Shown here: piece by piece, positions 22,260 through 50,578 of the stretch
Layout of the letters: each line of letters opens with the position of its first letter
Numbering within the stretch: the first letter of the stretch is position 1
From: a virus
Lineage: Duplodnaviria > Caudoviricetes
Virus record (IMG/VR): IMGVR_UViG_3300028886_000028
Location: 224,001-288,000 of that record
Reading direction: 5' to 3' (one strand)
DNA: 64,000 bases
Program-made: the position numbers and the translations under genes
Notes under the pieces: model-generated
Database searches by the model: none
What the model saw: the letters and a program-made list of their open reading frames with translations, nothing else
What the model was told of the DNA's origin: nothing

Positions 22260-23882
22260 ATGATGGAAAAGGAAAAGCATAGTTTCGTACCTAATTTTGC
22301 TAACATAGCATTTACTGAAAATGGCGCAATATCTAAGTTTACAACTGGCAAGGTTATTACCGACCAATTCGGTAAGGCCGCTAACTATCGTGGACGTGAA
22401 ATTAGTGACGTTTTTAAAGACCAGGAATTACTTTGGCTTGAAAATAAAGAACAAGCAGTTCGTTTCCCGTTCTATTTGAGAATGGTGACTCGTAAGGTAA
22501 AGGTTAACGATAAAAACACCACTGATAAAGTTCAGAAAGGACAAGGCGTTCGTGACGAATCCTTTAAGCGTTTGCTTTGGCTTGCTGCCAATCAGCCGGA
22601 TTCGTTTTATAAGAACATATGGGTGTTACCTATGGTTGGCTGCTGGAAGGATTTGTGGACTTTGATGTATTACGATGTAATTCTCAAAACAAATGCCATT
22701 GACCGTTCCATAATCTTCGACCTTATTAATCAAGGTTTGAAGTGTTCTTCCCATATGGAATTGATTAAGAAGTTTATGCCTCGTGTTAAGACTAACACTA
22801 AGTGCAAAACTGATTGGACCCAGATTACAAACTCTCTTGCTCGTGAATTCGCAAATTATAACGGAATGTCATACAAGGATTATAACCATTTGAAGACAAG
22901 TGGCACAGCCCATGACTTTCAGAAACTTATTTGCAGCGGTCGTTTCAACGACATCAATTGGAATTTAATTCCAGGACGCGCTCTTAGCAAGATAACTACT
23001 CAGAAGTTCTTGTCAAAGCATGACCTTGAAAAAGGTTACACAGAATGGGTAATTTCTCAGCCTACTGTGAAATATACTGGCTATGTGTATGAATTGGCAA
23101 AGGAAGTGATAACTTCAGTCGGTTGGAGCGCAAGGGCCAATAAAATGCCTATTTTCAAGAAAATAACTATTGATAAACAGTTCGATGAATTAGTTAAAAA
23201 GGCAGTAGAAGACGGCAATGTTCTTGGAAACGTATGGTGCGCACTTGACACCAGTGGCTCAATGGGCGCTAGAGTTGTGGGAGATATAAGTGCATACGAT
23301 ATTTGTGTATCGTTGGGAGTATTCTTTTCTACAATTAACACAGGCGCATTCCATAAAAATGTAATAATGTTTGACAACACTTCGCAGGTTAAACAACTCA
23401 AAGGTGGTTTCTGCGATATGATTAATGACATTATTCATTCTAAAACTGCTTGGGGAGGTACTAACTTCCAAAGTGTCATAGACGAAATTGTAAGGGTTCG
23501 TAAAGAAAACCCTAGCATTCCTCTTGAAGATTATCCTCAGACATTGCTTATAGTTAGTGATATGCAATTCAATCCGGTTGGAGGCAACGAAGATACTAAT
23601 TATCAAGCAATGAAAAAGAAACTCTATACTGTTTTCCCAGAGGAATTTGTTAACAGTATGAAGTTTATTTGGTGGCAGGTAACTGGCCGTACAAATGATG
23701 CCCCTGCTACACTCGATGATAATGGATGCTATTTCTTTAGCGGATTCGATGGAAGCATAGTTTCTCTTCTTCTTGGTGGAGAAATGGCAGAAACTGAGGC
23801 TGAAACGAAAGTAAAGCCAACAATGGAGGAAATGATTAACGCCGCACTAGGACAAGAAATATTATCTTATGTAATAGCATAA
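22260..23882 (+). CDS. DUF2828-type helical + vWA protein (Ro60/TROVE-like architecture)
   Basis: N-terminal TENGA; GQGVR and GCWKDL segments; C-terminal MIDAS DTSGSM, WGGTNFQ, IVSDMQF. Confidence 0.75.
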   Translation: MMEKEKHSFVPNFANIAFTENGAISKFTTGKVITDQFGKAANYRGREISDVFKDQELLWLENKEQAVRFPFYLRMVTRKVKVNDKNTTDKVQKGQGVRDESFKRLLWLAANQPDSFYKNIWVLPMVGCWKDLWTLMYYDVILKTNAIDRSIIFDLINQGLKCSSHMELIKKFMPRVKTNTKCKTDWTQITNSLAREFANYNGMSYKDYNHLKTSGTAHDFQKLICSGRFNDINWNLIPGRALSKITTQKFLSKHDLEKGYTEWVISQPTVKYTGYVYELAKEVITSVGWSARANKMPIFKKITIDKQFDELVKKAVEDGNVLGNVWCALDTSGSMGARVVGDISAYDICVSLGVFFSTINTGAFHKNVIMFDNTSQVKQLKGGFCDMINDIIHSKTAWGGTNFQSVIDEIVRVRKENPSIPLEDYPQTLLIVSDMQFNPVGGNEDTNYQAMKKKLYTVFPEEFVNSMKFIWWQVTGRTNDAPATLDDNGCYFFSGFDGSIVSLLLGGEMAETEAETKVKPTMEEMINAALGQEILSYVIA

Positions 23883-24212
23883 GACAAATAACACTAAACG
23901 GAAATGGGTGGTGCTACATTGTAGTGCTACCCATTTTTAAGTTTAATTAACTAAACTTTTTTTCCATTGACACTTTTTTTTTGTATATTTGCAATATAAA
24001 TGTTTTAAAAGAAATTACATATTATGATGTTTTTTTACAAAAAGAAGAAACATAAGAAGCATAAGAACAAAGGGAATTGCTATAATACAAGTGGTAGCAT
24101 GAAAGAAAAAAAACGCTTTGGGCTTACTAATGCTGAAATGGATGGGCTTATTTTGCAAATGATATGTAAGCCTAAAATACCTATTGAATCTGTAAATTAA
24201 ACTTATATAAAA

Positions 24213-25490
24213 ATGACATTATTAGAAGAACTAAATTTTAGAGGGCTAATTGCCAGTACGTCAGGTAATCTTACAGAATTACTTAGTAAACCAACTGTTT
24301 TTTATGTAGGAACAGACCCTACTGCCGATAGCCTTCATCTAGGGCATTTGCTTGCGTTTACAACTGCTAAACTGTTGCAAAGTTATGGGCACAAACCAAT
24401 TGTTCTTTTAGGCGGAGCAACAGCATTTATTGGCGACCCATCATTCAAATCAGAAGAGCGTAAACTGCTTAGTGCTGATGTTGTTTCCCACAATATTGAT
24501 GGTATTCGTGCTCAGGTTTCAAAATTGCTTGATTTTAATTCAACTGCTGATAATGCCGCAATAATGGTAAACAATTACGATTGGATGAAAGATATGTCTT
24601 TCATAGATTTTGCCCGTGAAGTAGGAAAATGTATTACCGTTAATTATATGATGGCAAAAGATTCTGTTAAGAAACGTTTGGAGCGTGAAGGTAGCGGAAT
24701 GTCATTTACTGAATTCACATATCAACTTATTCAAGGCAATGACTTTGTTGAGCTTTACAAAAAGTATGGCTGTAAGTTGCAAATAGGTGGCAGCGACCAG
24801 TACGGAAATGGAACAACAGGTATTGAACTTATACATAAGATGTTGAAAAAAGATGACGCTTGTGTTCTCACTTGGCCGCTTGTTACAAAGGCTGATGGCA
24901 CAAAGTTTGGTAAATCTGAAAAAGGTAATATTTGGTTAGATGCAAGTAAGACTTCTCCTTATGAATTTTATCAGTTCTGGCTCAACCAATCTGATGATGA
25001 TTCAGAACGTTTCATTAAGTTGTTTACTCTTATCCCTCTTGATAACATAAAGTCAATTATTGAGCAGCATCGTGAAGACCCTGGTAAAAGATATTTACAA
25101 ACTGTGTTAGCAGAGTATATGACAGAAATGATTCATGGCAGAGAAGCTTTGCAAGGAGTTAAGCAAGCCACTTCATTTTTGTTCGGCGGTGGTGACATTA
25201 ATAAAATGGATGAAAACGGGTGGAAGTACGTAGAATCTGAGGTAACTACTGTTGAAGTAAGTAAAGATGTTTTTGAAAATACAAATATGCCTGTTATTGA
25301 ATTGGCTATAATGCACGATAAAGTGCCTTCAAAATCAGAAGCACGTAAGCTCATTAAAAGTAATGGCTTTTCAGTAAATAAAACTAAAGTTAGTGAAAAA
25401 GATACTGTTGATGCATCTAGTCTTATAAACGGCAAATATCTTCTTTTACAAAAAGGTAAAAAAGACTATACGTTGGTTATCTGTAAATGA
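24213..25490 (+). CDS. tyrS: tyrosyl-tRNA synthetase
   Basis: DPTADSLHLGH, QIGGSDQYGN, KFGKS, C-terminal S4 domain. Confidence 0.97.
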   Translation: MTLLEELNFRGLIASTSGNLTELLSKPTVFYVGTDPTADSLHLGHLLAFTTAKLLQSYGHKPIVLLGGATAFIGDPSFKSEERKLLSADVVSHNIDGIRAQVSKLLDFNSTADNAAIMVNNYDWMKDMSFIDFAREVGKCITVNYMMAKDSVKKRLEREGSGMSFTEFTYQLIQGNDFVELYKKYGCKLQIGGSDQYGNGTTGIELIHKMLKKDDACVLTWPLVTKADGTKFGKSEKGNIWLDASKTSPYEFYQFWLNQSDDDSERFIKLFTLIPLDNIKSIIEQHREDPGKRYLQTVLAEYMTEMIHGREALQGVKQATSFLFGGGDINKMDENGWKYVESEVTTVEVSKDVFENTNMPVIELAIMHDKVPSKSEARKLIKSNGFSVNKTKVSEKDTVDASSLINGKYLLLQKGKKDYTLVICK

Positions 25491-25640
25491 TATAGTGGGA
25501 TGGGAAAACCATCCCACATTTTCGTTTAATATACCAATAGTAAAAATAAACAATCAATTAATATTTTTTAACTCAATTTTTTTGCATACGTCAAAAAAAA
25601 ATATTACCTTTGCAGCGAAATAATTTAAGCATAAAATATT

Positions 25641-26531
25641 ATGGAAAAAAAAGTTTTTAAAGATTGTGAAGTAGGAGATAAATTATATCTAATAGAGTTT
25701 AATAATAATTTAAACATTAAAGAAACTACGTTTAAAAGTAAAACACATTATTGGCATGAAGCAAGTTATACCATTTATTTAGAAAATGAAACGCCTTCTA
25801 CGGGCTGTATAGATGCCAGAAGTAGAAATAAAAATCTATTCACCACTAAAGAAGAAGCTGAAGAATTTAGGAATGAAATTATTAACGGCAAAAAAGTTTT
25901 TCTTACCGCCAAAAAAGGCGATACTGTTTATATAGTTGTACGTGGGGAATCAGACATTTTAAAGTCTAAGCTAGATTATGATTATGATAGAAGTACTCCT
26001 ACTGAGCGAGTAAGATTTTATTTTTGTAAATATAAAAAATATATAACTGATTTTCCAAGCGAACTAGAAGATAAAGCAGAAATTTCTTTTTATAATGATG
26101 CTTATAAACGTGTAATTGTAAAATATTTTTTAAACGAAAAAGATGCTATAAATTACATCAAATATTCAGAAAGAAGGAAGAAGAAAAACGCAACAGATAA
26201 ATACATAAAGTCAATTGAAAATCATGATGGAAAGCCTATTTCATTAAAAGATAACGCAGGAAATGATTTACACTATGGCGACACTGTTGTTTATATAAGG
26301 AGAATTGGGTACAACGCCCATCCAGAATTAAGGAAAGGTGTTATAATTGGTGAGTCAAAAACCACGATAAGAGTGCTTGACGAATGTGAAAAGAAAAATG
26401 GTATACCGATGGGATTTCGAGGAGAAAGAACTAAGGAATCTGATGGAACGCATTCTGTGCAGTCTCAAAGCGTTATGCTGTTTAAAACAGCCGAGGTTAA
26501 TACCAAAAGTGGATTTGTTTTTACAAAATAA
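25641..26531 (+). CDS. hypothetical protein
   Basis: 296 aa with repeated GDxVY modules; early promoter upstream. Confidence 0.65.
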   Translation: MEKKVFKDCEVGDKLYLIEFNNNLNIKETTFKSKTHYWHEASYTIYLENETPSTGCIDARSRNKNLFTTKEEAEEFRNEIINGKKVFLTAKKGDTVYIVVRGESDILKSKLDYDYDRSTPTERVRFYFCKYKKYITDFPSELEDKAEISFYNDAYKRVIVKYFLNEKDAINYIKYSERRKKKNATDKYIKSIENHDGKPISLKDNAGNDLHYGDTVVYIRRIGYNAHPELRKGVIIGESKTTIRVLDECEKKNGIPMGFRGERTKESDGTHSVQSQSVMLFKTAEVNTKSGFVFTK

Positions 26532-26534
26532 TAT

Positions 26535-26792
26535 ATGGAAGAATTACTAGAAAATACATGGTATTTAATTTTGTTTCTCATAGAAATAGCAGTAGTACTT
26601 GTTATAATTGATGCTATTATGAGCATTATAGGGAGTATGCTAGGTTTTTCTTGGAAAAAAGTATTAATGTGGGCAGCAACCGTGTTTGGAATTTTATGGT
26701 TAAGAGACTTCATTAAAAAACGCAAGCAAAAAGCACAGAAAGAGATAGTGCAAGAGTTAACAGAAGATGATTTTGAAACAATTAATAATTAA
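26535..26792 (+). CDS. membrane protein
   Basis: Hydrophobic N-terminal two thirds. Confidence 0.6.
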   Translation: MEELLENTWYLILFLIEIAVVLVIIDAIMSIIGSMLGFSWKKVLMWAATVFGILWLRDFIKKRKQKAQKEIVQELTEDDFETINN

Positions 26793-26800
26793 ATAAAAAA

Positions 26801-27712
26801 ATGATTATAGGAAGAAATGAGCCTCTTGATTACAAGAGTGTATTTGAAACAATTGTAAATACGACTGCTGAATATATTAAGTCGTGTAAGTTAGAAACAA
26901 TGGTACTAGGCTTAAGCGGTGGGCTGGATTCTACAGTTTGCGCTGCCATTTGCAGCAAGGTCGCTGAAAAAACTGGCGCTGTGCTATATGGCGTAAATTT
27001 ACCGTGCTCTACAAATAAAGAAGATGAAAACAATTCTGCTGATTTGGCAGGACAAGAATTTTGTAATGCATATGTTAAAGCGGGGATTCAAGAAACGTTT
27101 GAGTGCGTTGAAAAGTTATGCGATACTGTATCTACTTTACCAAGTACTAAAATATCACAAGGTAATATAAAAGCTCGTCTGAGGATGATTACTCTATATG
27201 ACATTGCAAGTAAAATGCATGGTATTGTAATAGACACAGATAATTTAACAGAACATTTCCTTTCTTTCTTCACCATAAATGGCGATGTTGGAGATTTAAA
27301 CCCAATAGGTAATCTTTGGAAAACTGAAGTATATGGGTTGGCTGAGTATATGTGTAAAGAAGTGTTCAATGATTCTGCCGCATTGAGAGCCGCTATTGAA
27401 ATAACTCCTACTGATGGCAATGGCGTGTCTAATTCAGATTTAGACCAAATCATGCCGGGTTATACATATGATGATGTTGACTCAATTCTTATGCCTTGGG
27501 TTACTCTTGATAATCGTATTAAAGAGTCTTTTTTAAAGAATGGCTTTAATCAAAAAGGTACTGTATTTGCTAAATTGGTTGAAAAATATGGAGAAGATAA
27601 CGTGAAACGTGTTATTATGCGTTCTGTTACATCTGAATTTAAAAGATTTCCACACCCAACACCAATTGATGTGTTTAGAGGGCAAATAGTTAAGAAATAT
27701 ACTATCGAATAA
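26801..27712 (+). CDS. nadE: NH3-dependent NAD+ synthetase
   Basis: LGLSGGLDS, GNIKARLRM, GDVGDLNPIGNLWKTEVY. Confidence 0.9.
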   Translation: MIIGRNEPLDYKSVFETIVNTTAEYIKSCKLETMVLGLSGGLDSTVCAAICSKVAEKTGAVLYGVNLPCSTNKEDENNSADLAGQEFCNAYVKAGIQETFECVEKLCDTVSTLPSTKISQGNIKARLRMITLYDIASKMHGIVIDTDNLTEHFLSFFTINGDVGDLNPIGNLWKTEVYGLAEYMCKEVFNDSAALRAAIEITPTDGNGVSNSDLDQIMPGYTYDDVDSILMPWVTLDNRIKESFLKNGFNQKGTVFAKLVEKYGEDNVKRVIMRSVTSEFKRFPHPTPIDVFRGQIVKKYTIE

Positions 27713-28697: not shown

Positions 28698-30041
28698 ATG
28701 GCAAATAATAAGAAAAATGAATCTCCTATTGTAGAGGTTTCAGTATGTACTACTCAGGTGGCAGAAAAGCCAAAAAGGTCAAGAAAGAAGTCAGCAACAT
28801 CTACTAGGGGGGTTGAGGCTGTAATCAGTGAAATTACTGAAAGGAAAGGCACTGTTGGAGAAACAACCACTGCCATTGCTAACATTTTAAAAGATAAGGA
28901 GCAGAAAGAAGTCAGTACGTTCAGAAGAATTAACGATGATGGAATGGTTAATATGTCTGAATTTACTCAAAAAGAACTTGATGAATACCATGCCATTGGT
29001 AAGAAATTGAACGTCCATGATAAGATGTCAATATCTAATTATGGTTCTGAATTAAGTGAGCAACTTAACCGCAGCACGAAGGAACTGATGGCTCGTGGCT
29101 CTACCACAAAACTGGGTGACGAAACTAAATCCATAATGAAAGAAATAAGTTCAAAACTTACCAATATAGATTTGGATGAAATTAAACGCCCCAATTGGTT
29201 TGTTAGAACTATTCGTGAGATTCCTCTTCTTAATAAAATGTTTTTCTCAATTAAAGCATTCATCAATAAATGCGAAAGCCTTGAGAAAGATGTTGAATTG
29301 ATGCAAGAAAAACTACACGCCGCACAGGCAATTGCCCTTCGTGATAACACAGAATTAGAGCAAAGATTTCAAGAAACTATATCATATATAGAAGTATTGG
29401 AGAAGTTAATTATTGCAGCAAAGCTTAAGTCAGAAGAGTATGGCAAGGCGCTTGAGGTGATGGAATCACAGCCAGAAAAATACTCAGCTATTGATATACA
29501 TGATACAAGAAACTTTAAGCACGAACTTGACAAGAGAGTGGAGGCTATGCTTACTTGGCACTTATCATTTAATCAGTCTTTGTTCCGCATCCGTGATATC
29601 CAGGATGCTAACATTGCTCATAGCAATTCAATTTCACAAGACATTGATAACATGATGCCAATGCTTCGTGACCAGTTACAGCAAGCAGTGTATTTGTATA
29701 ATCTTGAACAAGGTCTAAAGGCGCATGAAGTTATGATAAATGGCTTCAATGAAATACTGGCACACAATGCGGATGCAACGCACGACCTTAAAGTTCGTGT
29801 TACTAAGATGACTGAAAGCCCATCAATTAAGCTTGAAACTCTTAAGCATAACCAAGAAAAAATCAAAGAAACTACCCGTGATTGCTTGCGCATTATTGAC
29901 GAAGCAGCTAAAGAACGCTTGAATAACGAGCGAGAAATGGCTAAAATGAGGGCTGAACTTGATTCTATGATGTCAGGCATTTCTGTTGATAGTAATACTA
30001 AAAGTGCTGCTGCAATAGAGGCTAAATATTCTACAGACTAA
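28698..30041 (+). CDS. TelA/KlaA toxic anion resistance family protein
   Basis: SISNYGSE, helical coiled-coil, DN..LE..F pattern. Confidence 0.65.
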   Translation: MANNKKNESPIVEVSVCTTQVAEKPKRSRKKSATSTRGVEAVISEITERKGTVGETTTAIANILKDKEQKEVSTFRRINDDGMVNMSEFTQKELDEYHAIGKKLNVHDKMSISNYGSELSEQLNRSTKELMARGSTTKLGDETKSIMKEISSKLTNIDLDEIKRPNWFVRTIREIPLLNKMFFSIKAFINKCESLEKDVELMQEKLHAAQAIALRDNTELEQRFQETISYIEVLEKLIIAAKLKSEEYGKALEVMESQPEKYSAIDIHDTRNFKHELDKRVEAMLTWHLSFNQSLFRIRDIQDANIAHSNSISQDIDNMMPMLRDQLQQAVYLYNLEQGLKAHEVMINGFNEILAHNADATHDLKVRVTKMTESPSIKLETLKHNQEKIKETTRDCLRIIDEAAKERLNNEREMAKMRAELDSMMSGISVDSNTKSAAAIEAKYSTD

Positions 30042-39280: not shown

Positions 39281-39283
39281 AAT

Positions 39284-40926: not shown

Positions 40927-41242
40927 CTAAAAAAAATTAAAAAAAGTTTTGTAAAAAACTATACTTTTCAAAATTAATTAATAATTATAGAAAAATAACT
41001 TCTAAAACTATGGCAAAAAACAGTAAACATAATGTATCATTTATCAATGCTGCGTTTATTTCTAATAAATGCATTGATAATAGTATGTCTACATCAGTCG
41101 TAGATTTTAGTCGAAAAGTTCATAAACAGCATAATTGTATGAGTACTTAGATTGCACTTACACTTCACTATAAATGCCAAGCTGTTGATGAACTCCTAAA
41201 AAAAGTTTTCAACAGCTTTTTTTTGATGTTAAAACAATTGTT

Positions 41243-41539: not shown

Positions 41540-41599
41540 TAAAATTTAACATAAAATATTTTGTTATCAAAATTTTTTTATGTATATTTGCGCAAAAAT

Positions 41600-41673
41600 T
41601 GGGAGTTAGCACAGTTGGTTAGTGCAGCTGACTGTTAATCAGCAGGTCGTGGGTTCGAGTCCCACACTCCCAG
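41600..41673 (+). tRNA. tRNA-Asn(GTT)
   Basis: gctga-ctgttaa-tcagc. Confidence 0.92.
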
Positions 41674-41680
41674 CACAAAT

Positions 41681-42519: not shown

Positions 42520-42522
42520 CAT

Positions 42523-42873
42523 ATGATAAAACTTGAACATTTTAAAAAAGGCAATTATTATTATATAAATGCTTATAGTGGTGATACTAGAGTTGGAAAA
42601 CTTGGTATTGAATACAGAGGAAGCCAAAATATACATATTAATTATGTTATCACTAGCGTAAGTTACACCGGAAAAGGTATTGCTACTATGATGATTAACA
42701 AGGCTATTGAATTATTTAAAGGATATGATATAAGTCTTTATGTAGTACCAATGCCTAGGAGTGAAGAAAAAATTAAATATAAAACAATAAAAGGCCTTTC
42801 TGAATTTTACAATAAGTTTGGGTTTGTTCGTACTGATGACCCTTGTTTAGTTGAAATGATATTAAAAAGATGA
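42523..42873 (+). CDS. GNAT acetyltransferase
   Basis: YTGKGIAT acetyl-CoA motif, FYNKFGF; ORF-track start lies inside the tRNA, so start moved to 42523. Confidence 0.8.
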   Translation: MIKLEHFKKGNYYYINAYSGDTRVGKLGIEYRGSQNIHINYVITSVSYTGKGIATMMINKAIELFKGYDISLYVVPMPRSEEKIKYKTIKGLSEFYNKFGFVRTDDPCLVEMILKR

Positions 42874-42945
42874 AAATAAAACAGAAAACATATAAACAGA
42901 TGTAAGTCTGCGTCAGTTAAGAGTTATGACGCAGTTATGTAAAAT

Positions 42946-43019
42946 GCGCTCGTAGCTCAGCTGGTAGATGCACAACACTTTTAATGTTGGGGTCCTGGGT
43001 CCGAGTCCCAGCGGGCGCA
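42946..43019 (+). tRNA. tRNA-Lys(TTT)
   Basis: caaca-cttttaa-tgttg. Confidence 0.88.
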
Positions 43020-43218
43020 CTAAAATGTTACTATTATACGACATTTTATAGAAACTTTTAAGGATGTTTAATTTAAAGTATTTGAAAATTATGTTGACAT
43101 TTATTTTCGGTGCAGCAGTAGGCGCAGTCGCTTATAGCTGGTGGACTAAGCGATAAGTCCAAAAACATGGAGAGTAAGGTGGCGCACTCCGCCAATTAAA
43201 ACGTCACAATTATAAAAT

Positions 43219-43293
43219 TCCGTGATGGTGTAGGTGGTTGTTGCTCGTTGGACTGAAAATCCAAAGGCCCTTGTTCAACTCAAGGTCGCGGAA
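43219..43293 (+). tRNA. tRNA-Phe(GAA)
   Basis: ttgga-ctgaaaa-tccaa. Confidence 0.85.
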
Positions 43294-43549
43294 CAAATAA
43301 AAAGTTGAAATTTATCTGTGGAATACAAACACGTTCAATCCAAGCAAGAAGGGGAACGATTTATAGGTATCAATCATAGACAGATAAAAATCTTGCAAGT
43401 ATTTCAGCTTTACTTTTAATGGTATGAGATAAACTAAGGGCTTATGTGAGGTTGTCACGAGCGTAGCATAGGAGGTGCAAGCCCACGTTTCACGAAGCTC
43501 AATGATTGACATCTATTTGTGACGTGGTTGTTTATCAATTGCCATATAT

Positions 43550-43632
43550 GGATGCGTGTAAGGACTCCTCTGGGGAGTGACCGTGTGATTGACATCAGGT
43601 AACAAACATAGGTTCGAATCCTATTGCATCCA
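43550..43632 (+). ncRNA. tRNA-like element (acceptor + T-arm, aberrant D/anticodon arms)
   Basis: ggatgcg/tgcatcc; atagg-ttcgaat-cctat. Confidence 0.55.
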
Positions 43633-43818
43633 CAAATGCTTGATAATGAGTTTGGAGCAGTTAAAAAGGTGTGTGAAGCTCTAAATTAGTAGTTAGGCGG
43701 TATTATGTATGTGCTCTCGAAAGATTGAGCTGATTTAATATCGGTTAATGAACATGAAACAATTTCTCATTTCCGCAAGCATCAATAAAAATTGGGATGA
43801 AGATTAAGTAGTAGACAT

Positions 43819-43897
43819 GCATGGGTATTCAAGCGGCTGAAGCGCCTAGTATTACAAACTAGTACACCATACGTATGTTCGAATCCTATTGCATCCA
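43819..43897 (+). pseudogene. chimeric tRNA-Val(TAC)-like sequence
   Basis: ctagt-attacaa-actag; 3' end identical to 43612-43636; acceptor unpaired. Confidence 0.5.
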
Positions 43898-44047
43898 CAA
43901 AAGGTGTTCGAAAAAACGTAGTTCGAAATGCGTTGAAGTAGATTAAATGTGGAAAGTCGTACCCTTCCGAGCAGACGTGTTTTCCACGCCTCGTTTGGGC
44001 TAAAGTGGGCAGAGATTCACGCCTCCAACACAGCATCTTTTTTATAT

Positions 44048-44127
44048 AGGGTATTAGCTCAGTTGGTTTAGAGCGTCTGACTTACATTCAGAAGGTTTCG
44101 TGGGTTCGATTCCCTCATACCCTACCA
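44048..44127 (+). tRNA. tRNA-Val(TAC)
   Basis: tctga-cttacat-tcaga; encoded CCA. Confidence 0.9.
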
Positions 44128-44249
44128 AGGAAACTAACAGCAAGGTTAAAAATGGCTTGTAACCCGTGGGTCACAGGTTCGAATCCTGTCTTAGGCTTTA
44201 AAAGTCTGGGTAGCTCAGTTGGCAGAGCAACGTTAATAAAATGTTTCCT
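44128..44249 (+). ncRNA. ACAGCAA cassette 7 with circularly permuted tRNA-Thr(TGT)
   Basis: aggaaac/gtttcct; gg-cttgtaa-cccgt, T-arm, acceptor closed by ttaaa, D-arm, acg. Confidence 0.9.
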
Positions 44250-44255
44250 AAAAAT

Positions 44256-44329
44256 GTTGGTGTAGCTTAGTTGGTTAAAGCATTTGACTGATATTCAAAA
44301 GACCGGGGGTCCGAGTCCCTCCATCAACA
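44256..44329 (+). tRNA. tRNA-Ile(GAT)
   Basis: tttga-ctgatat-tcaaa. Confidence 0.88.
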
Positions 44330-44344
44330 CACAATACAATTTTT

Positions 44345-44416
44345 GGGCTGTATAGTGTAAAGGCTAACACGAGACTTTTGCAAAGTCTAATTGCGGTTCG
44401 AGTCCGATACGGTCCA
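44345..44416 (+). tRNA. tRNA-Ala(TGC), 8-bp acceptor variant
   Basis: agact-tttgcaa-agtct; G3:U; gggctgta/tacggtcc. Confidence 0.75.
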
Positions 44417-44423
44417 CTAGACA

Positions 44424-44500
44424 AGGGAACTAACAGCAAGTTATTATTTATGTTAAAACATCAGACTGCAAATTTGAAAACGTTGAACAAATAGTTCCCT
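44424..44500 (+). ncRNA. ACAGCAA cassette 8 with isolated Cys(GCA) anticodon arm
   Basis: agggaacta/tagttccct; tcaga-ctgcaaa-tttga. Confidence 0.82.
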
Positions 44501-44516
44501 AATATTCATATTAAAC

Positions 44517-44924
44517 GGGCCTAAATTGGTATAGATTGGCAGTAGTTTGGTAGAAATCAAGCAGTGGGCATACACTAGAAATAGCAAAAAAAATATAAAC
44601 GGCGAGAATGTAGATTCTCCTGCTTATGCTTACGCAATGGCTGCGTAAGGCATGAGTCGAGAGACTAGGCTCTTAGGAACAGAACATCCTAGTAATTTTT
44701 CTTAGCGTTGTACGTTAAGATGGTGGAACTGATGACTTCTAGTCATCCCCTAGTTTTCCTCGTTTTCACAAAATGAGGTGGCGGTGAGTTAACTTTCCAA
44801 TGTTTTCCTCGTTTTCTCAAAATGAGGTGGTCTCAAAGGCGGTGTCTTCGGACACTTTGGGTAAGCTTGTATAAATTTCTATGGAACACTGAACAAGACG
44901 AGGGTTCAACTCCCTCTAGGTCCA
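44517..44924 (+). ncRNA. ssrA: tmRNA
   Basis: gggccta/taggtcc with G3:U, T-arm; tag ORF 44601-44648 GENVDSPAYAYAMAA*. Confidence 0.92.
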
Positions 44925-45100
44925 CTAAATACTAAAAAAAAACTTATGAAACATTTTAGCGAAGGAAATCAAGAAGAAGAGTATGATTCTATGAAAGAAT
45001 ATGAAACTAACATACCTTCTCATTTTAAAGACGATTAAAAAAGTAACTTAAAATTTCTTTTTTACAATTTTTTTATGTATATTTGCAAAAAATATTGGTT

Positions 45101-45352
45101 ATGGGAAAAATTTTAGATGCAGAATTTAGAAAAGAACTTTATAAAAATCTTGTAGAGGCCGGGTATGAAAAGACAGAGGCTCAAAAGATTGTTGGTAAAA
45201 AGTATTATGGAGAGTTGCATGAAGAAGTAAAGAAGGAAGTTGATGTGTTTTTAAATGCATTAGTAAAAGAGGATTTTAGTGTTGTTTTTGATTGCGATTC
45301 AGTGACAAAGAAAGTAGAAGAACTTAAAAAGTTAAAAGAATTACTTAGTTAA
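45101..45352 (+). CDS. hypothetical protein
   Basis: ORF after early promoter. Confidence 0.6.
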   Translation: MGKILDAEFRKELYKNLVEAGYEKTEAQKIVGKKYYGELHEEVKKEVDVFLNALVKEDFSVVFDCDSVTKKVEELKKLKELLS

Positions 45353-45358
45353 TAATAT

Positions 45359-45431
45359 TGTGGGGTAGAGCAGTTGGTAGCTTGTCAGACTCATAATCTG
45401 GAGGTCGTGGGTTCGAGTCCCACCCCCGCTA
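45359..45431 (+). tRNA. tRNA-Met(CAT), initiator-like
   Basis: 1:72 mismatch, gagcagttggtagct D-arm; lacks the three G:C anticodon-stem pairs. Confidence 0.8.
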
Positions 45432-45444
45432 CTTTATAAATACA

Positions 45445-45573
45445 AGGAAGTTGACAGCAAACGATAAGAAATTTTCCCAAGCCGGAGGTCGTTGGTTCGA
45501 ATCCAACTAGGAATTGTGTTTATCCTATAGCTCAGATGGTTTAGAGCGCCAGCTATTTCATTTAATGCTTCCT
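45445..45573 (+). ncRNA. ACAGCAA cassette 9 with circularly permuted tRNA-like domain (CCC loop)
   Basis: aggaagt/gcttcct; ttcccaa-gccgg, T-arm, tagga/tccta, D-arm, ccagc. Confidence 0.85.
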
Positions 45574-45578
45574 AAAAT

Positions 45579-45655
45579 AGCCTCAGGGGATGCTAGGCGT
45601 GTCCGTCACTCTGTCACAGTGTTCAATCAGGTGGGTTCGAATCCCATTGGGGCTG
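45579..45655 (+). tRNA. tRNA-Asp(GTC), atypical D-arm
   Basis: cact-ctgtcac-agtg; G73. Confidence 0.75.
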
Positions 45656-45682
45656 CGTAGTATAAAACGTTTCCTAAAATAT

Positions 45683-45756
45683 GGTGTACGTGGTTGAGTG
45701 GTTTAGGCGCAAGATTGTGGTTCTTGTCTACGCAGGTTCGAATCCTGTCGTACACC
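45683..45756 (+). tRNA. tRNA-His(GTG)
   Basis: G-1:C73; caaga-ttgtggt-tcttg. Confidence 0.9.
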
Positions 45757-45944
45757 CTAGAATAATTTAATATTTTTAAATAAAATTAGTTATGAAAAGT
45801 TTTTGGTAGATTATCAATCAGTTTTGGTAGCTGAATCGTGTTCGTGGTACTCCTAGAGTTAATTTATTATCATCGAGTGAAAATAAGGGCGATAATAGTC
45901 CTTTTACAACATTAGAAAAATATAATAAATTAATATTAGGAATT

Positions 45945-46259
45945 ATGGAAAAATTACAATTTACAGACAAAGCAACCACAAAAGAACAGTATTTAAAGTT
46001 CAAGGAGTATATTAAGCAAAATTGTCACGGTCACGCTGCTTATGTAGCATACTACATTTTCAAGCATCGTATTGAAGGTGAAAAACGTGATGAATATCTT
46101 GAAGACGAGGTTAGACATCGTTGTTGGAAAGGCCTTTATCATGGTAGAATTCTACTCAGTGGTGGAGACATGACAGAAAACTATGCAATACCACTCTTTA
46201 AGAATAGGGTAATTAGAAAGTATAACGAATTTGCTGACCCAGATGGAAAAGAAAAATAA
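45945..46259 (+). CDS. hypothetical protein
   Basis: 104 aa ORF. Confidence 0.6.
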   Translation: MEKLQFTDKATTKEQYLKFKEYIKQNCHGHAAYVAYYIFKHRIEGEKRDEYLEDEVRHRCWKGLYHGRILLSGGDMTENYAIPLFKNRVIRKYNEFADPDGKEK

Positions 46260-46539
46260 GTTATACGTATTAATTGACAAATCCCTTGATGCTGTATACG
46301 GTTGTGTTCAAGGTGGTCACGCAGTGGCGCAATGGTTACTTGAACATGATTATGGTTGGGAAAACGAGTACTTGATTTATTTGAGTGCTGATGTCTATAA
46401 GTGGAAAAACAAGTTATCTGTTCTTGGTGTCGGTTATACTGAATTTAAAGAACCAGACCTTGACAATAAAACCACATCTTTAGCTGTATTAGGGCACGAT
46501 AAGTTATTTAAGAAATTAAAATTAATCAGTGCTAATTAA
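46243..46539 (+). CDS. peptidyl-tRNA hydrolase type 2-like protein
   Basis: KLYVLID..L...VQGGHA ... EPDLDNKTTSLAV. Confidence 0.65.
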   Translation: MEKKNKLYVLIDKSLDAVYGCVQGGHAVAQWLLEHDYGWENEYLIYLSADVYKWKNKLSVLGVGYTEFKEPDLDNKTTSLAVLGHDKLFKKLKLISAN

Positions 46540-46568
46540 GCGTTACGGCTGTAGAAATACAGCCTATT

Positions 46569-46645
46569 GGCCCTATGGCAGAGTGGTCGATTGCGGTCGC
46601 TTCTAAACCGATTTATCATCGTGGGTTCGAATCCTACTAGGGTCA
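46569..46645 (+). tRNA. amber suppressor tRNA (CTA)
   Basis: gtcgc-ttctaaa-ccgat; ggcccta/tagggtc; canonical T-arm. Confidence 0.75.
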
Positions 46646-46829
46646 CTACGGCTTGGTGTATCCATTGAGATACTGAAATAGGTTAGACAAGCACAAGTCA
46701 CGTAAGAAATGACAGGCAGGCAGTAATGCTGTGCGAGGATTAGTCCCTTGCTCTAATCTCTTGATGGTAATAGAGACCTTTTTAAGTTAGAGGTTAAACT
46801 TATATTTTTTTAAAAAAGTATTAATAATT

Positions 46830-47078
46830 ATGGTAGTACAAGATATTAAGCCTTTAGTGAAAGGCATCGCTCAATTACAATATGTATTAGCCGGAGGTAT
46901 AGCAGTATATAAAATAATTGCTGTAGATGGCACGGAATATCAACTGGAAATAGATGTGAGCAATAAAAATGATGTTGGAGCAAGTGCTTCTTTTAATACA
47001 ACTGAAAAGGCTTTACTTCTAATGAGGTGGATAAGGAAAGCTAATGAAAATGATACTCTTATCAAAATAAAGGGCTAG
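46830..47078 (+). CDS. hypothetical protein
   Basis: 82 aa ORF. Confidence 0.6.
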   Translation: MVVQDIKPLVKGIAQLQYVLAGGIAVYKIIAVDGTEYQLEIDVSNKNDVGASASFNTTEKALLLMRWIRKANENDTLIKIKG

Positions 47079-47152
47079 CAGTAAAAGGTTCATCCTAAAG
47101 CTCTATTCGTAGGAATGCTGAAGGACTGAGTGTTCGAATCACTCCTAGTCCA
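47072..47152 (+). ncRNA. tRNA-like mini-RNA with Ala-type acceptor (G3:U) and no D-arm
   Basis: gggctag/ctagtcc-a; gagtg-ttcgaat-cactc. Confidence 0.65.
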
Positions 47153-47170
47153 CAAATTTAAATAAAAGTT

Positions 47171-47359
47171 ATGGCTATAATAGTTACAAAACATGGAGAT
47201 AGAATGCTTCATGGAAAATGCACAAAATGTGGCTGCGAATTTTTGTATCAATTTACTGATATAGTATATGATTATGATAGAATTAATGCATATGATTCAG
47301 AATTAAGGTGCAAATATGTACGTTGCCCAGAATGTAATGCTGTTATAGGATTAGATTAA
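47171..47359 (+). CDS. small Zn-ribbon protein
   Basis: CTKCGCEF...CPEC. Confidence 0.6.
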   Translation: MAIIVTKHGDRMLHGKCTKCGCEFLYQFTDIVYDYDRINAYDSELRCKYVRCPECNAVIGLD

Positions 47360-47365
47360 ACAAAT

Positions 47366-47698
47366 ATGGGAGAAAAGTACACTTATAGTGGATTTGAAAA
47401 CAGAGAAACTTGCGAACATTTAAGAGCAGGAGAAACATGCAAAGTAACTGGTATAGGAAATAGTATGACACCAGTTCTTCAATCTCACCAACCTGTTATT
47501 TGCGAACCGGTTACTGTTGAAACTGAATTGAAGAAAAAAGACATTGTTCTTTGTAAAGTGAAAAGATATTATTATTTACATTTTATTCATGCAATAAAGA
47601 ATAATGGAGAACAGTTTCTAATAGGCAACAATCATGGTCGCATGAATGGTTGGATAAGCAGAAATCAGGTATATGGTAAAGTTATAGAGATACTTTAA
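47366..47698 (+). CDS. S24/S26 peptidase-like protein
   Basis: GNSMTP, DIVLCKV, LH, IGNNHG. Confidence 0.55.
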   Translation: MGEKYTYSGFENRETCEHLRAGETCKVTGIGNSMTPVLQSHQPVICEPVTVETELKKKDIVLCKVKRYYYLHFIHAIKNNGEQFLIGNNHGRMNGWISRNQVYGKVIEIL

Positions 47699-48430
47699 AA
47701 ATCTCTTTTATACACCCTAGTAGTTTAAATCGTGAAAACTAGATGTATTCTAATGGTGAGTCGAATCATCCTGGGGCACTTTAGTCCTATTATTCCCTGA
47801 GAGTTGCCTAGCGTCACTCAAAGTAGTAGGTTTTGTGAATGGGTAACTGTATGAAATGGCTGTTTGTATCTTATCGTGTAGATGCATGGCACGTCATACA
47901 AACACAATGGAGATAAATCATGCAACTTATCATCCTTGTTCACACAAAGTACCCATTCAATTTTTTTAAAAGTTTGTGATAATTATGGATGGGTTTGATT
48001 ACAAAAATGGAGAACTAGTCTGTAAAAGATGCGGAAGCAGAAATGTATCAGTAAGAGCTGGTATGATGACAGACAGAGCGATATGTAATAGTTGTGGTAA
48101 TGAAGATTACATTTAACAAAAATTAATATTTTTAATTTCTTTTTTATAATTATTTTTTGTATATTTGCGTTGTAATAAGAAAAACATATGGCTTCGCTAT
48201 CAAGAAGTCAAAGGCATAACAGCCTATCGCATTTGTCCATAGCGCTTGTAACTTTGCGAACGGCGGGCTTTTCTCTAGTACAGCCTAAAAACTTGAGGGT
48301 TAGTTGTTTATCCACAAAGCAAGCACGGGTTCGAGGAAATTGGTGGTGCGTCTATAAATCCTCCGAATAACCCACGATAAGGGTGTCGTTTTGTCTGTTG
48401 TACGGCACTAGTAAAACAATAGATAATTAT

Positions 48431-48503
48431 GCTCCGTTAGCTCAGTTGGAAGAGCACTAGATTTGTAATCCTGAGGTCGTGGGTTCAAGTCCCGCACGGA
48501 GCT
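48431..48503 (+). tRNA. tRNA-Thr(TGT), weak anticodon stem
   Basis: ctaga-tttgtaa-tcctg (two mismatches). Confidence 0.75.
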
Positions 48504-48575
48504 CAGAATAAGGGGGAGAGCCTGTAGTTACGGCAGAACAGCATTCGGCTTCTACGCCAACCTCCCCAAATTTTT

Positions 48576-48649
48576 GCTCCATTAGCTCAGCTGTATAGAG
48601 CGTCATCCTCCTAAGATGAATGTCACAGGTTAGAGTCCTGTATGGAGCA
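48576..48649 (+). tRNA. tRNA-Arg(CCT)
   Basis: tcatc-ctcctaa-gatga. Confidence 0.88.
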
Positions 48650-48703
48650 CGGAAATCCCTTCTCAGTTGGGGGATAATAATATCACTGAGTGGCGGCTAA
48701 TTT

Positions 48704-49000
48704 ATGACAAAGAAATATTGGAAAGATTGGCAAAATAGAATTGGAGAAACCAAAAACATATACAAGTTTTGGAATTATTCAGATGGCAAAAAAATGAAAA
48801 GGTTTGGAGGTATATTAAACAACCTTGCAGGCGATAAATTATCTAAAGCAACATTTAATCATACAACAGATACTGTTGATTTGGTTATTGAAAGGTGGCA
48901 TCAAACGTTTTCAAAATCAATTCACATTCAGAATGAATATATAACATTGAATCGTGAAGATATTGCTTGTATAGAATTTAATAAAGAATATAATACATAG
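48704..49000 (+). CDS. hypothetical protein
   Basis: 98 aa ORF. Confidence 0.6.
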   Translation: MTKKYWKDWQNRIGETKNIYKFWNYSDGKKMKRFGGILNNLAGDKLSKATFNHTTDTVDLVIERWHQTFSKSIHIQNEYITLNREDIACIEFNKEYNT

Positions 49001-49117
49001 AAGGACATACTGGGGTAAAATCTCAGAGAAGTTACCGTAGGCAACGAATAATTGCATCCTACATCAAGGCGTTGTTACAGTTGTACGGGATAGTGGAATG
49101 TAAGTATTATATATAAA

Positions 49118-49204
49118 GGAGGGATGGGTGAGTGGCTTAAACCAGCACATTGCTAACGTGCCGGCCCTTAATTGGGCCCGGGGGTTCGAATCCCTCTCCC
49201 TCCG
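49118..49204 (+). tRNA. tRNA-Ser(GCT)
   Basis: gcaca-ttgctaa-cgtgc; long variable arm. Confidence 0.9.
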
Positions 49205-49225
49205 CTTAACTAAATTTAGTTAAAT

Positions 49226-49430
49226 GCTGTGCATCAGTGGTCCAGAGTGGTGCGCGGCTGCTACGCAAGGAAATATTCGAATAATGGTAATGCGTAGAAA
49301 ATCCCGGGCCGATGGATAGGAACGGAGAGCACCTGGTAGAGTGCGAAAGTGCGCGAAGGCGTTTACGGGTAGCTTAATGGTGTCGGTTAAGGCTTACGAT
49401 AGCCTTGTTTCATATTAGGTGATGTACAGC
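49226..49430 (+). ncRNA. unknown GC-rich structured RNA
   Basis: 11-bp closing helix gctgtgcatca/tgatgtacagc; internal hairpins. Confidence 0.55.
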
Positions 49431-49523
49431 CCTTTTATGGAAAAGTTATGAGGGTATATTAACTTAATGTTACGTTATGCCCTCATTTTTTTTATTTTAG
49501 TCTAACTAAAAATTTTATATCAT

Positions 49524-49769
49524 ATGGCGCAAAAGAAATTTTCTGAAATGGATATGATTATGATGGAACTACAGAAAATCGGAAACGATGAATTTATGTT
49601 GGGGTTCCAATATCCAGGGAACACTTTGGAAGAAGTTTTAACTGAAGCAATAAAAAAATTGCAGGATTATCTGGAAAACAATAAAGAAAATAAAGACAAA
49701 GTTTCTCCTTATGGCTACAGAATAAATCTTGAGCTTTTTAAAAAGGGAGAGCCAAAAAATATTTTCTAG
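49524..49769 (+). CDS. hypothetical protein
   Basis: 81 aa ORF. Confidence 0.55.
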   Translation: MAQKKFSEMDMIMMELQKIGNDEFMLGFQYPGNTLEEVLTEAIKKLQDYLENNKENKDKVSPYGYRINLELFKKGEPKNIF

Positions 49770-49818
49770 GTGTATTTTCCTATCATAATTTGATATTTAT
49801 TAAAAATATTCAAATAAC

Positions 49819-50319
49819 ATGATAGGTTCATTACATACAATGAGTTATCTTAAACCTTGCAATGTTTTTTTAAAATTTTTTGCAAGGTTTAAAAGGACTC
49901 AAACAGTTAATATAAAAGAGCAGTATGAAAAATACAATATAAGGGTGTTTGACTTTCATATATACTTTGTTGGAATAAATGGCAAAGCCATTTTTAAATA
50001 CAGTGGTATAAAATACGAAATATCTTCTATGTACAAAATATTCAATTATTTAGAATACGTTGGCAATTCTTATGTTAGAATTGTATTAGAAGATAATGGT
50101 GAGAAAATCACAGAAAACGATAGGCTTTTACTTGAAAAACGTTTTATTGATTATTGTAAGATAATAGAGACTATATATCCCAGAATAAAATTTTTCGGAG
50201 GGTATAGAGAATATGATTCAAACATGTTATATAGATTTAAAAATGACGCTCCTAATGATTTAATCTTTTATAAAAGAGTTGATAAATTAAATAAATTCGC
50301 CGGTGGGGGAGTGGTTTAA
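49819..50319 (+). CDS. PI-PLC X-domain-like protein (degenerate)
   Basis: IGSLHTMSY..TQTVNIKEQYE..IRVFDF resembles the PLC-X N-terminus. Confidence 0.45.
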   Translation: MIGSLHTMSYLKPCNVFLKFFARFKRTQTVNIKEQYEKYNIRVFDFHIYFVGINGKAIFKYSGIKYEISSMYKIFNYLEYVGNSYVRIVLEDNGEKITENDRLLLEKRFIDYCKIIETIYPRIKFFGGYREYDSNMLYRFKNDAPNDLIFYKRVDKLNKFAGGGVV

Positions 50320-50384
50320 CCCAGCAGTCTCCAAAACTGCCGTAGCTTAGGCTACCGCATGTTCGAATCGTGCCCGGCGAGCCA
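50297..50384 (+). tRNA. tRNA with CCA (Trp) anticodon and long variable arm
   Basis: gcagt-ctccaaa-actgc; gtagc/gctac arm; GCCA end. Confidence 0.85.
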
Positions 50385-50389
50385 TTTAC

Positions 50390-50466
50390 GGCGTGATAGC
50401 TCAGTTGGTCAGAGCAACAGACTCATATTCTGTGGGCCGTAAGTTCGAATCTTACTCACGCTACCA
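50390..50466 (+). tRNA. tRNA-Met/Ile2(CAT)
   Basis: acaga-ctcatat-tctgt; ACCA end. Confidence 0.88.
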
Positions 50467-50578
50467 AGGGAACTTACAGCAAGTATTCATCGTGAAGGAA
50501 TGGTCTACTTGAAAGTCTTAAGAGCTTTTGTGCGTAAGCACTTGTGGGTTCGAATCCCACCGAAAATAAAAGTTCCCT
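50467..50578 (+). ncRNA. ACAGCAA cassette 10 with acceptor-less tRNA-Leu(TAA) body
   Basis: agggaactt/aagttccct; aaagt-cttaaga-gcttt, variable arm gtgc/gcac, T-arm. Confidence 0.85.

Follow-up and report, generated by a model that had tools for sequence, protein, structure and literature searches.

We describe a candidate RNA-protein system in a large tailed phage, examined in a window of 64,000 nucleotides (nt) that spans bases 224001-288000 of the IMG/VR record IMGVR_UViG_3300028886_000028, a record of 401,138 bp that is complete by CheckV estimate. Positions below are those of the window, i.e., the whole stretch that was analyzed, unless a genome position is stated. The window encodes a 540-amino-acid (aa) DUF7788/DUF2828 protein which, on the basis of its predicted structure, is a divergent structural homologue of Ro60. 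Among the transfer RNA (tRNA) genes further along lie ten elements which, from their sequence and covarying helix, are most likely genes for one family of small non-coding RNAs. Elements of the same kind accompany DUF2828 genes in phages that are only distantly related to this one. We consider it probable that these RNAs and the ring-shaped protein form a particle of the Ro/Y-RNA type, with the RNAs released by tRNA processing, while the exact role of such a particle, be it repair, surveillance or decoy, is a much less certain matter.

A DUF7788/DUF2828 protein with a Ro60-like fold

A sequence-only reading of this DNA, made before any database search, had described a 540-aa protein consisting of a helical part plus one von Willebrand factor A (vWA) domain with a metal ion-dependent adhesion site (MIDAS). 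This description holds: DTSGSM and SDMQF, the residues of the MIDAS, do not vary among 36 homologues, and residues 330-521 match Pfam PF25043 (DUF7788) with 74 bits against a cut-off of 27.1 (1.4e-20). The N-terminal helical part scores 13.9 bits with PF11443 (DUF2828), which is below the cut-off of 29. Many homologues at 55-78% identity do carry PF11443, however, and the assignment to the DUF2828 family therefore stands. More than 1,700 homologues are known, many of them on phage contigs of 100-430 kb, and in some phage records they are labelled "RNA-binding protein", "putative ribonucleoprotein" or "Ro-like".

An AlphaFold2 model was generated with the 36 homologues (pLDDT 83, pTM 0.82) and compared with known structures. 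Foldseek retrieved 13 matches in the PDB at E <= 0.001, all of them Ro60/TROVE proteins. With VIA-align, model residues 13-513 aligned to Xenopus Ro60 (1yvr) with a Z score of 19.6 over 428 residues and a root-mean-square deviation of 4.5. The Ro60 of Thermus phage phiLo and the Rsr of Deinococcus followed with Z scores of 14-16.5, and the next matches were vWA domains only (Z ~11). The comparison with Ro60 that the sequence-only reading had called for thus returned a Ro60-type ring with a vWA domain. Since the fold matches Ro60 while a sequence profile misses it (see below), the protein would be a structural homologue that is invisible to sequence methods.

A family of RNAs with a common handle

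The window contains 23 copies of the heptamer ACAGCAA where 10.7 +/- 3.4 would be expected, and none of 100 shuffled sequences reached 23. Ten of the sites, all on the + strand between 32405 and 50578, belong to elements with a shared design (E1 to E10, Table 1), nine with ACAGCAA and one with ACAGCAT. In each of these, a terminal helix of 6-9 bp (AGGRAnnn/nnnTYCCU) is adjoined on its 5' strand by the heptamer, and we refer to helix and heptamer together as the handle. The 5' strand consists of AGGRA and 2-4 variable bases, its exact complement, ending in TYCCU, is found 35-150 nt downstream, and the insert of about 35-150 nt that the handle encloses is variable. The inner pairs of the helix covary between copies (GGAAACAT/ATGTTTCC, GGAATC/GATTCC, GGAGTC/GACTCC, GGGAGCGT/GCGTTCCC, GGAAGT/GCTTCC and GGGAACTT/AAGTTCCC). 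The ten dispersed RNAs with a terminal helix and ACAGCA(A) that had been recognized from the letters alone are therefore confirmed as a set, with compensatory changes in their inner pairs.

There is one more copy, the eleventh, beyond the window. It is located at genome positions 189040-189180, in a second small tRNA cluster between tRNA-Leu(CAA) and tRNA-Leu(UAG). Like some of the window copies described below, it is permuted, its terminal stem enclosing a T-arm, a loop-closed acceptor and a D-arm.

The elements differ in size, with E1, E2, E5 and E8 being short (59-77 nt) and E6 long (173 nt), and they keep close company with tRNA genes. Going by coordinates, six of the ten stop 4-16 nt short of the 5' end of a tRNA or transfer-messenger RNA (tmRNA) gene and five start 0-13 nt past the 3' end of a tRNA gene; four stop 22-150 nt ahead of open reading frames (ORFs). 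The placement is retained in a related phage fragment, L038, where the orthologue of E7 likewise lies between tRNA-Val and tRNA-Ile.

tRNA-like inserts in permuted and normal order

The sequence-only reading had credited seven elements with tRNA parts. Clear arms are present in five of these (E3, E4, E7, E9 and E10), and the claim falls away for E1 and E8, whose sole tRNA trait is a heptamer resembling an anticodon loop (UUGCAAC and CUGCAAA, respectively). In E3, E7 and E9 the order is handle, T-arm, loop-closed acceptor, D-arm, handle, so that the handle occupies the place of the anticodon arm. This permuted order, which the sequence-only reading had likened to that of the bacterial Y RNA YrlA, is borne out for E7 and E9 by Infernal alignment to the full Rfam YrlA model (RF02553), and for E3 by direct reading of the same topology (terminal stem, T-arm, loop-closed acceptor, D-arm). 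The alignments of E7 and E9 score 34.3 and 27.6 bits, short of the gathering score of 69, and in that of E9 the ACAGCAA sits at the YrlA position of the proposed Ro-binding motif.

E4 and E10 enclose tRNA-like bodies in normal order, with the handle occupying the place of the acceptor stem. The body of E10 has a D-arm, an anticodon arm, a long variable arm and a T-arm, with four of seven acceptor pairs and without CCA; in that of E4, the anticodon loop is just 6 nt long (ARAGORN gives the anticodon as "tt") and five of seven acceptor pairs form. Both pass the score of the Rfam tRNA model (RF00005), yet neither has the complete cloverleaf, with a 7-bp acceptor and a 7-nt anticodon loop, of a tRNA that can be processed and charged. 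Judging from these sequence features, the two called "tRNA genes" are better read as handle-enclosed mimics. Homologous bodies, likewise enclosed by a handle and with anticodon arms that are Cys-like and Phe-like, were found in the related phage fragments L067 and L076. The array of this phage thus shows both modes of display together, permuted and normal-order tRNA modules.

Two other identities were considered for the elements. Permuted but functional tRNA genes were rejected, as both the anticodon arm and CCA are missing, and self-cleaving ribozymes were rejected, as no Rfam ribozyme was detected in the array at E <= 10. A parent tRNA for the inserts was not found among the phage's own tRNAs, with which the inserts share just a generic D-arm and T-arm similarity.

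Handle RNAs beside DUF2828 genes in other phages

The sequence-only reading had tied protein to RNAs by co-location and analogy, and the association extends to other phages. RNAs with a stem and ACAGCAA were found beside DUF2828 genes whose proteins are just 24-58% identical, often within 400 nt of the gene. The pattern of this lineage, AAGGRRN{3,4}ACAGCAA, matched 78 times in 26 of 48 DUF2828-bearing viral records, on one strand only within each record, and its reversed control matched 0 times. Relatives missed by this strict pattern still carry elements. In L124, a relative of this phage, a minimal element precedes the start codon of the DUF2828 gene by 60 nt.

The association is also seen in cultured phages. 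In Felix O1, the DUF2828 gene is directly followed by an array of 22 tRNAs, and four elements (AGACCNN-NN-ACAGCAA...NNGGTCU), one of them a permuted tRNA mimic, lie between the first tRNAs, starting 339 nt past the gene. Listeria phage VAfA18 (P100-like) has three tandem elements, the last of which ends 68 nt before the gene, and an RtcB-type ligase 1.2 kb downstream of it. In the cyanophage Lbo-JY46 of Leptolyngbya, five tandem elements begin 8 nt past the gene. In metagenomic loci with proteins 24-45% identical to that of the window, the elements crowd around the gene, no more than a few hundred bases away, and by their coordinates the nearest element is less than 400 nt from the gene in 14 of 18 divergent loci. 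The Rfam YrlA model found no match in the Felix O1, Listeria, Serratia and Leptolyngbya phage loci.

To be independent of lineage, a finder was used that called helices of 7 bp or longer which contained three or more G-C pairs and ended no more than 3 nt before ACAGCAA, and that was run with three control readings of the same DNA. It returned 94 elements on the gene strand against 11, 13 and 4 in the controls. These amount to 86 distinct elements in 36 loci, and helix positions -7 to -4 show all four Watson-Crick pairs. A T-loop motif is present in 23 of the 86. This scripted finder was used in place of a covariance model since the variable inserts kept MAFFT from lining up the 3' strands cleanly, in contrast to the motif and the 5' strand, which aligned well. 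A collection-wide scan with CAAGGRAN{3,4}ACAGCAAG gave mostly single chance matches; several elements, or convincing paired 3' strands, beside tRNA genes were found with it in L038, L067 and L076.

We would also like to note that the locus of the Listeria phage (L199, positions 4421-4972; vB_Liva_VAfA18, MN939540) contains a match to ROOL RNA of 89.8 bits (E 6e-17; gathering score 99.1). It has the tRNA array on one side and the three handle RNAs on the other, which places two enigmatic RNA classes next to each other.

Genomic setting

The window has a GC content of about 32%, and DNA runs with matching sequence come chiefly from bovine gut metagenomes. A megablast search of 8 kb of the window against cultured phages returned no match. 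Genes for translation and metabolism (IF3, a sigma factor, tyrosyl-tRNA synthetase and NAD synthase) flank the Ro-like gene, and NAD synthase and the single-stranded DNA-binding protein SSB are encoded upstream of the array as well, the stretch from tyrosyl-tRNA synthetase to NAD synthase covering 24213-27712. The coordinates of the features are collected in Table 1.

Table 1. Handle elements, Ro-like gene and other features of the window, with positions counted from its first base.
Feature	Position	Strand	Remarks
DUF7788/DUF2828 protein gene, 540 aa	22260-23882	+	predicted helical-repeat ring with C-terminal vWA domain and MIDAS
E1, 59 nt	32405-32463	+	helix AGGAAACAT/ATGTTTCCT; 6 nt before tRNA-Glu; L038 orthologue also before tRNA-Glu
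E2, 68 nt	33284-33351	+	helix GGGAATT/AGTTCCC; 22 nt before 84-aa ORF
E3, permuted tRNA-like insert	33838-33973	+	acceptor closed by 20-nt loop; 8 nt before tRNA-Pro; arms read directly
E4, normal-order tRNA-like body	34346-34458	+	motif ACAGCAT; ARAGORN "tRNA-???"; Rfam tRNA 38.7 bits
E5, 64 nt	34844-34907	+	helix GGGAGCGT/GCGTTCCC
E6, 173 nt	40676-40848	+	several hairpins, no tRNA arm; between two tRNA-Arg genes (13 nt after, 4 nt before)
E7, YrlA-like permuted tRNA mimic	44128-44249	+	directly after tRNA-Val (ARAGORN end 44127); 6 nt before tRNA-Ile
E8, 77 nt	44424-44500	+	CUGCAAA heptamer; 16 nt before tmRNA gene
E9, YrlA-like permuted tRNA mimic	45445-45573	+	between tRNA-Met and tRNA-Asp
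E10, tRNA-Leu(UAA)-like body	50467-50578	+	directly after tRNA-Met (ARAGORN end 50466); ARAGORN tRNA-Leu; Rfam tRNA 37.1 bits
tRNA/tmRNA array	32470-50568	+ (all)	25 tRNA genes and 1 tmRNA gene; ARAGORN, Rfam
tmRNA	44517-44925	+	tag GENVDSPAYAYAMAA; Rfam 54.8 bits; E8 directly before
IF3 homologue	20094-20621		upstream of array
Sigma factor (sigma-70-type)	20630-21589		upstream of array
Tyrosyl-tRNA synthetase	24213-25490		upstream of array
TelA	28698-30041		upstream of array
TATATTTG box, Bacteroidota -7-like promoter element	22230-22237	+	23 nt upstream of protein gene; read from sequence
TATATTTG box in promoter-like site TTG-N18-TATATTTG	32380-32387	+	17 nt upstream of E1

The phage's tmRNA tag starts with GEN, and the related fragment L038 has a tmRNA in the identical arrangement, with the tag GENVDSPAYAMAIAA. 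Boxes of the form TAnnTTTG are of a type that we take to be that of Bacteroidota promoters. The GEN-type tag and these boxes together hint at a host among the Bacteroidota. An identical GTATATTTGCA box, read from the sequence as a candidate promoter, stands ahead of the protein gene, of E1 and of further units of the array, and the promoter-like site upstream of E1 would put this element at the very start of a transcription unit. The sequence-only reading had assigned the protein gene and the RNAs to the same early promoter class; the shared TATATTTG box ahead of the gene and E1 agrees with this at the level of sequence.

The array holds several further features. An ORF of 128 aa at 38071-38457 has a Tad2-like (Thoeris anti-defence 2) domain (1.5e-10), which places an anti-defence gene amid the handle RNAs and tRNAs. 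At 46569-46646 there is a tRNA of the suppressor type (anticodon CUA; labelled "Pyl" by ARAGORN), a hint that in part of the phage genome TAG may be decoded as an amino acid. Stretches of 180-750 nt that are poor in ORFs (34057-34345, 35983-36253, 41675-42347, 43295-44047, 46647-46829, 47699-48187 and 49206-49523) gave no Rfam match at E <= 10 and may hold further structured RNAs. Weak tRNA-like matches were found at 42348-42420 (30 bits) and 43550-43632 (25.5 bits).

Beyond the window, the same phage encodes a CCA-adding enzyme (genome positions 291447-291860, 3.4 kb past the window end, 90.7 bits) and an RtcB RNA ligase (genome positions 316545-317735, 28.5 kb past the window end, 197 bits). 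An RNA ligase of the Rnl2 type (PF09414) was not found in this phage genome.

A proposed particle and its alternatives

The interpretation that we favor runs as follows. The RNAs would be transcribed along with the tRNA array from Bacteroidota-type promoters and freed as RNase P and 3'-end processing enzymes excise the flanking tRNAs. The 5' and 3' ends of each RNA would then pair into the terminal helix of 6-9 bp, which with the unpaired ACAGCAA would make up the constant handle, leaving the rest of the RNA as a variable module. By analogy with Ro60 on Y RNA, the handle would be the docking site for the DUF2828 ring. Permuted modules (E3, E7 and E9) would expose the tRNA elbow and the closed acceptor stem, as YrlA does, and normal-order modules (E4 and E10) would expose the anticodon arm. 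The particle might in this way tether the ring protein to enzymes that handle tRNAs, by analogy with the Rsr-Y RNA-PNPase and phiLo Ro60-Yrl-PNPase assemblies (PMC12135203). Candidate partners are the phage-encoded RtcB and CCA-adding enzyme, host exonucleases and tRNA-directed nucleases, and the purpose may lie in the surveillance, repair or protection of the tRNA pool in the course of infection. The view taken in the sequence-only reading, that of a distinct class of protein-tethered tRNA mimics, draws support from the fold, the co-occurrence, the Rfam searches and the topology of the inserts, and came through every computational check that the reading had named as able to refute it. Its conjectural parts are the expression of the RNAs, their binding by the protein and the suggested roles as decoy, repair adaptor or sponge.

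Several observations weigh against a Ro/Y-type particle. On the protein side, TROVE (PF05731) gave no match to the 540-aa protein even at E <= 10, a six-frame search of the whole 401-kb genome for TROVE found none, and a sequence profile of the 36 homologues matched no Ro60 chain among PDB sequences. On the RNA side, the handle is unlike every characterized Ro-binding site, and the YrlA scores are far below the Rfam threshold (34 vs 69 bits). Bovine-gut RNA runs contain at most 0.50 of the sampled words from 43900-46000, a fraction to which carried-over DNA possibly contributes. As for the link between the two, the protein gene of this genome lies 8.5-26.6 kb from the RNAs, and the link for this genome therefore rests on other phages; among these, Serratia phage BF has the gene and no convincing element within 6 kb of it. 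Relatives that share the tyrosyl-tRNA synthetase all carry DUF2828 as far as they were screened (two further records lie outside the screen), and hence provide no natural control without the protein. A search with the 365-aa neighbor protein as query found no relatives of this phage.

The main rival to the particle model, and an unlikely one in our estimation, sees in the handle a punctuation or stability signal that acts in cis on the long tRNA-array transcripts. A host or phage RNase, or another RNA-binding protein, would read it so as to direct cleavage or preserve spacer RNA, with DUF2828 nearby just as a fellow member of the phage's tRNA and translation module. The close spacing of window elements to tRNA and tmRNA genes (six of ten ending 4-16 nt before one, five beginning 0-13 nt after a tRNA), the position of the Felix O1 elements between tRNAs and that of E1 at the head of a transcription unit are all what such a signal would lead one to see. 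A position between tRNAs, however, is equally expected of small RNAs that rely on tRNA processing to be released, and tandem elements right beside the gene, with no intervening tRNA, are seen in the Listeria phage, in the cyanophage and in many metagenomic loci. Nor does a cleavage signal need elaborate tRNA-mimic inserts, as present in 23 of 86 members, or a motif that is invariant over phages of different bacterial phyla. A slightly more doubtful proposal is that the RNAs act alone, as sponges or decoys aimed at the host's tRNA-directed defence nucleases or at factors that bind tRNA, with the handle doing no more than stabilizing them and DUF2828 having a separate job such as quality control of misfolded RNA via its central hole. 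Such decoys would be well served by modules that display anticodon arms (E4 and E10, and the Cys-like and Phe-like arms of L067 and L076) or elbows (E3, E7 and E9), in an array that carries a Tad2-like anti-defence gene. Yet the handle is kept by the 63 of 86 members that lack a T-loop motif, its invariant single-stranded heptamer next to a helix resembles a protein-binding site and not a stabilizing clamp, and the close adjacency of gene and RNAs in distant phages would stay unexplained.

It is very improbable, in our view, that the handle is an operator by which the DUF2828 protein regulates the translation or stability of messages, its own included, with the tRNA-like inserts being incidental. 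The minimal element of L124, situated in the 5' leader of the DUF2828 gene, would suit this function, as would the four window elements that end 22-150 nt before ORFs, but most window elements (six of ten) precede tRNA or tmRNA genes rather than ORFs, many loci have 3-5 tandem copies downstream of the gene, and the leader of the window's own DUF2828 gene has no element. We give scarcely any credence to the elements being relics at the DNA level, i.e., decayed or rearranged tRNA genes or scars of mobile sequences without RNA function. The helix is kept through compensatory changes although the inserts differ wholly, all copies lie on the transcribed strand, the motif is invariant over phyla, and there is no parent gene among the phage's own tRNAs. 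These points outweigh the facts that pseudo-tRNAs do occur in the tRNA arrays of large phages and that E4 and E10 score as weak tRNAs.

A full-text literature search returned no paper on the function of DUF2828 and no description of this protein-RNA system, and a full-text search for ACAGCAA together with phage and tRNA returned nothing relevant among the matches listed. What sets the present window apart is its large set of elements (10 in the window and 1 outside), located at a distance from the gene and interspersed among the genes of a tRNA/tmRNA array. Should the particle model be correct, hundreds of phages would carry a second, sequence-unrelated particle of the Ro/Y type with an RNA signature of its own, and carriers such as Felix O1 and Listeria phages of the P100 type would offer easy laboratory models. 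The large orphan family DUF2828 would gain a function, and there would be an explanation for the mis-called tRNAs and unannotated "spacers" of phage tRNA arrays.

Comparison with known systems

Ro60 and Y RNAs form a classic and still poorly understood RNA-protein particle, Ro60 being an autoantigen in lupus and Sjogren's syndrome. The phage protein resembles Ro60 in that, in the model, a ring of helical repeats is closed by a vWA/MIDAS domain, with Z scores of 14-19.6 to Ro60 structures. Its candidate partner RNAs resemble Y RNAs in that both ends pair and the 5' strand bears a conserved motif that is for the most part unpaired. Some of them, like YrlA, enclose a permuted tRNA mimic, and others recall YrlB by their small size. 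RNA repair genes of the RtcB type are linked to the system in some phages, as is the case for Ro60 systems. The presence of Ro60 with Y RNAs in phages has been described before (PMC4201824, PMC12135203, PMC7824862), and Thermus phage phiLo provides an experimentally known case in which Ro60 is found with the Y-like RNAs Yrl1 and Yrl2 (PMC12135203; PDB 9kop, 9l5y).

The differences are nonetheless considerable. The phage protein belongs to DUF7788/DUF2828 and has no TROVE sequence match, in contrast to TROVE Ro60. YrlA has a proposed Ro-binding motif, GNCGAAN0-1G, on its 5' strand (PMC4201824), and in place of this motif all window copies read ACAGCAA or ACAGCAT; the heptamer follows the helix, whereas Y RNAs have GNCGAAN0-1G or GGUCCGA within it. 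The departure of the handle from the canonical Y RNA stem had been remarked upon in the sequence-only reading and is upheld by this comparison (PMC4201824). YrlA genes have an adjacent TROVE Ro60 gene, while here 8.5 kb separate the end of the Ro-like DUF2828 gene from the first element. The RNA genes number up to 11 per genome, and they are strewn over tRNA arrays and do not lie only by the protein gene. Finally, some modules are tRNA bodies in normal order, with the handle replacing the acceptor stem, which is not the design of YrlA.

Permuted tRNA genes are known from the red alga Cyanidioschyzon merolae, in which the 3' half of the tRNA precedes the 5' half and the transcripts are circularized and cut into functional tRNAs. 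The permuted elements share with these genes the order of the T-arm and acceptor 3' strand before the acceptor 5' strand and D-arm. They differ from them in that the handle replaces the anticodon arm and the acceptor is loop-closed without CCA, and no working tRNA can therefore arise from them. Stable non-tRNA RNAs in a phage tRNA array also have a precedent in "species 1 and 2" (rnaC and rnaD) of phage T4, which lie in the T4 tRNA cluster and are co-transcribed and matured with the tRNAs; we know of no handle motif or Ro-like partner for either.

Of all Rfam families, the sole resemblance was to the Class I RNAs of Dictyostelium (RF01414). Four RNAs beside the cyanophage gene match this model, with scores of 39.3, 30.7 and 26.2 bits among them against a threshold of 41.5, and on the whole genome of the present phage its best score was 16.1 bits (same threshold), at none of the elements. 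As the function of RF01414 is itself unknown, the resemblance extends the idea of a protein-bound handle RNA and does not explain it away. As described in PMC7919456, Class I RNAs are eukaryotic RNAs of 42-65 nt with DUSE promoters that are reported to be unique to Dictyostelia, are abundant and are developmentally regulated. The same paper names the protein Rnp1A, with its RRM domain, as the only proven direct binder and three other proteins as associated, and states that how these RNAs, known since 2004, work with their proven partner is still unknown (PMC7919456).

The likeness concerns the handle. In Class I RNAs, a 6-bp stem joins the ends and is followed by the Rfam consensus CUUACAGCAA, with the same core heptamer, and then by a variable loop. 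A conserved unpaired motif (..UUACAGCAA) comes directly after the stem in both, although the preceding CUU is not conserved in the window copies, and the distance from the first base of the stem to ACAGCAA is 9 nt in both. Both are multicopy RNAs whose stems show compensatory changes. In size they differ, since within the window just E1 (59 nt) and E5 (64 nt) fit the 42-65 nt of Class I RNAs, the others being 68-173 nt long and five of them having tRNA arms. In many of the 86 elements (e.g., in L170, L171 and L161) the 3' strand of the handle is followed by GUU(U), and the Class I RNAs of Dictyostelium end in CUGU. Judging by sequence, the two may represent a common 3'-end or termination signal.

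A bolder conjecture, which we think has a rather poor chance of being right, is that the stem-ACAGCAA handle and the DUF2828 ring constitute an old, cross-domain second class of Ro/Y-type particles, spread over phages of many phyla and giant viruses. The Class I RNAs would be its eukaryotic members, and the phage modules would be exchangeable baits (tRNA elbow or anticodon arm) that capture or divert host enzymes attacking or processing tRNAs, i.e., an RNA-guided counter-defence. If the particle model holds, the Class I RNAs of Dictyostelium would in any event gain, in DUF2828, a concrete candidate partner that can be put to the test.

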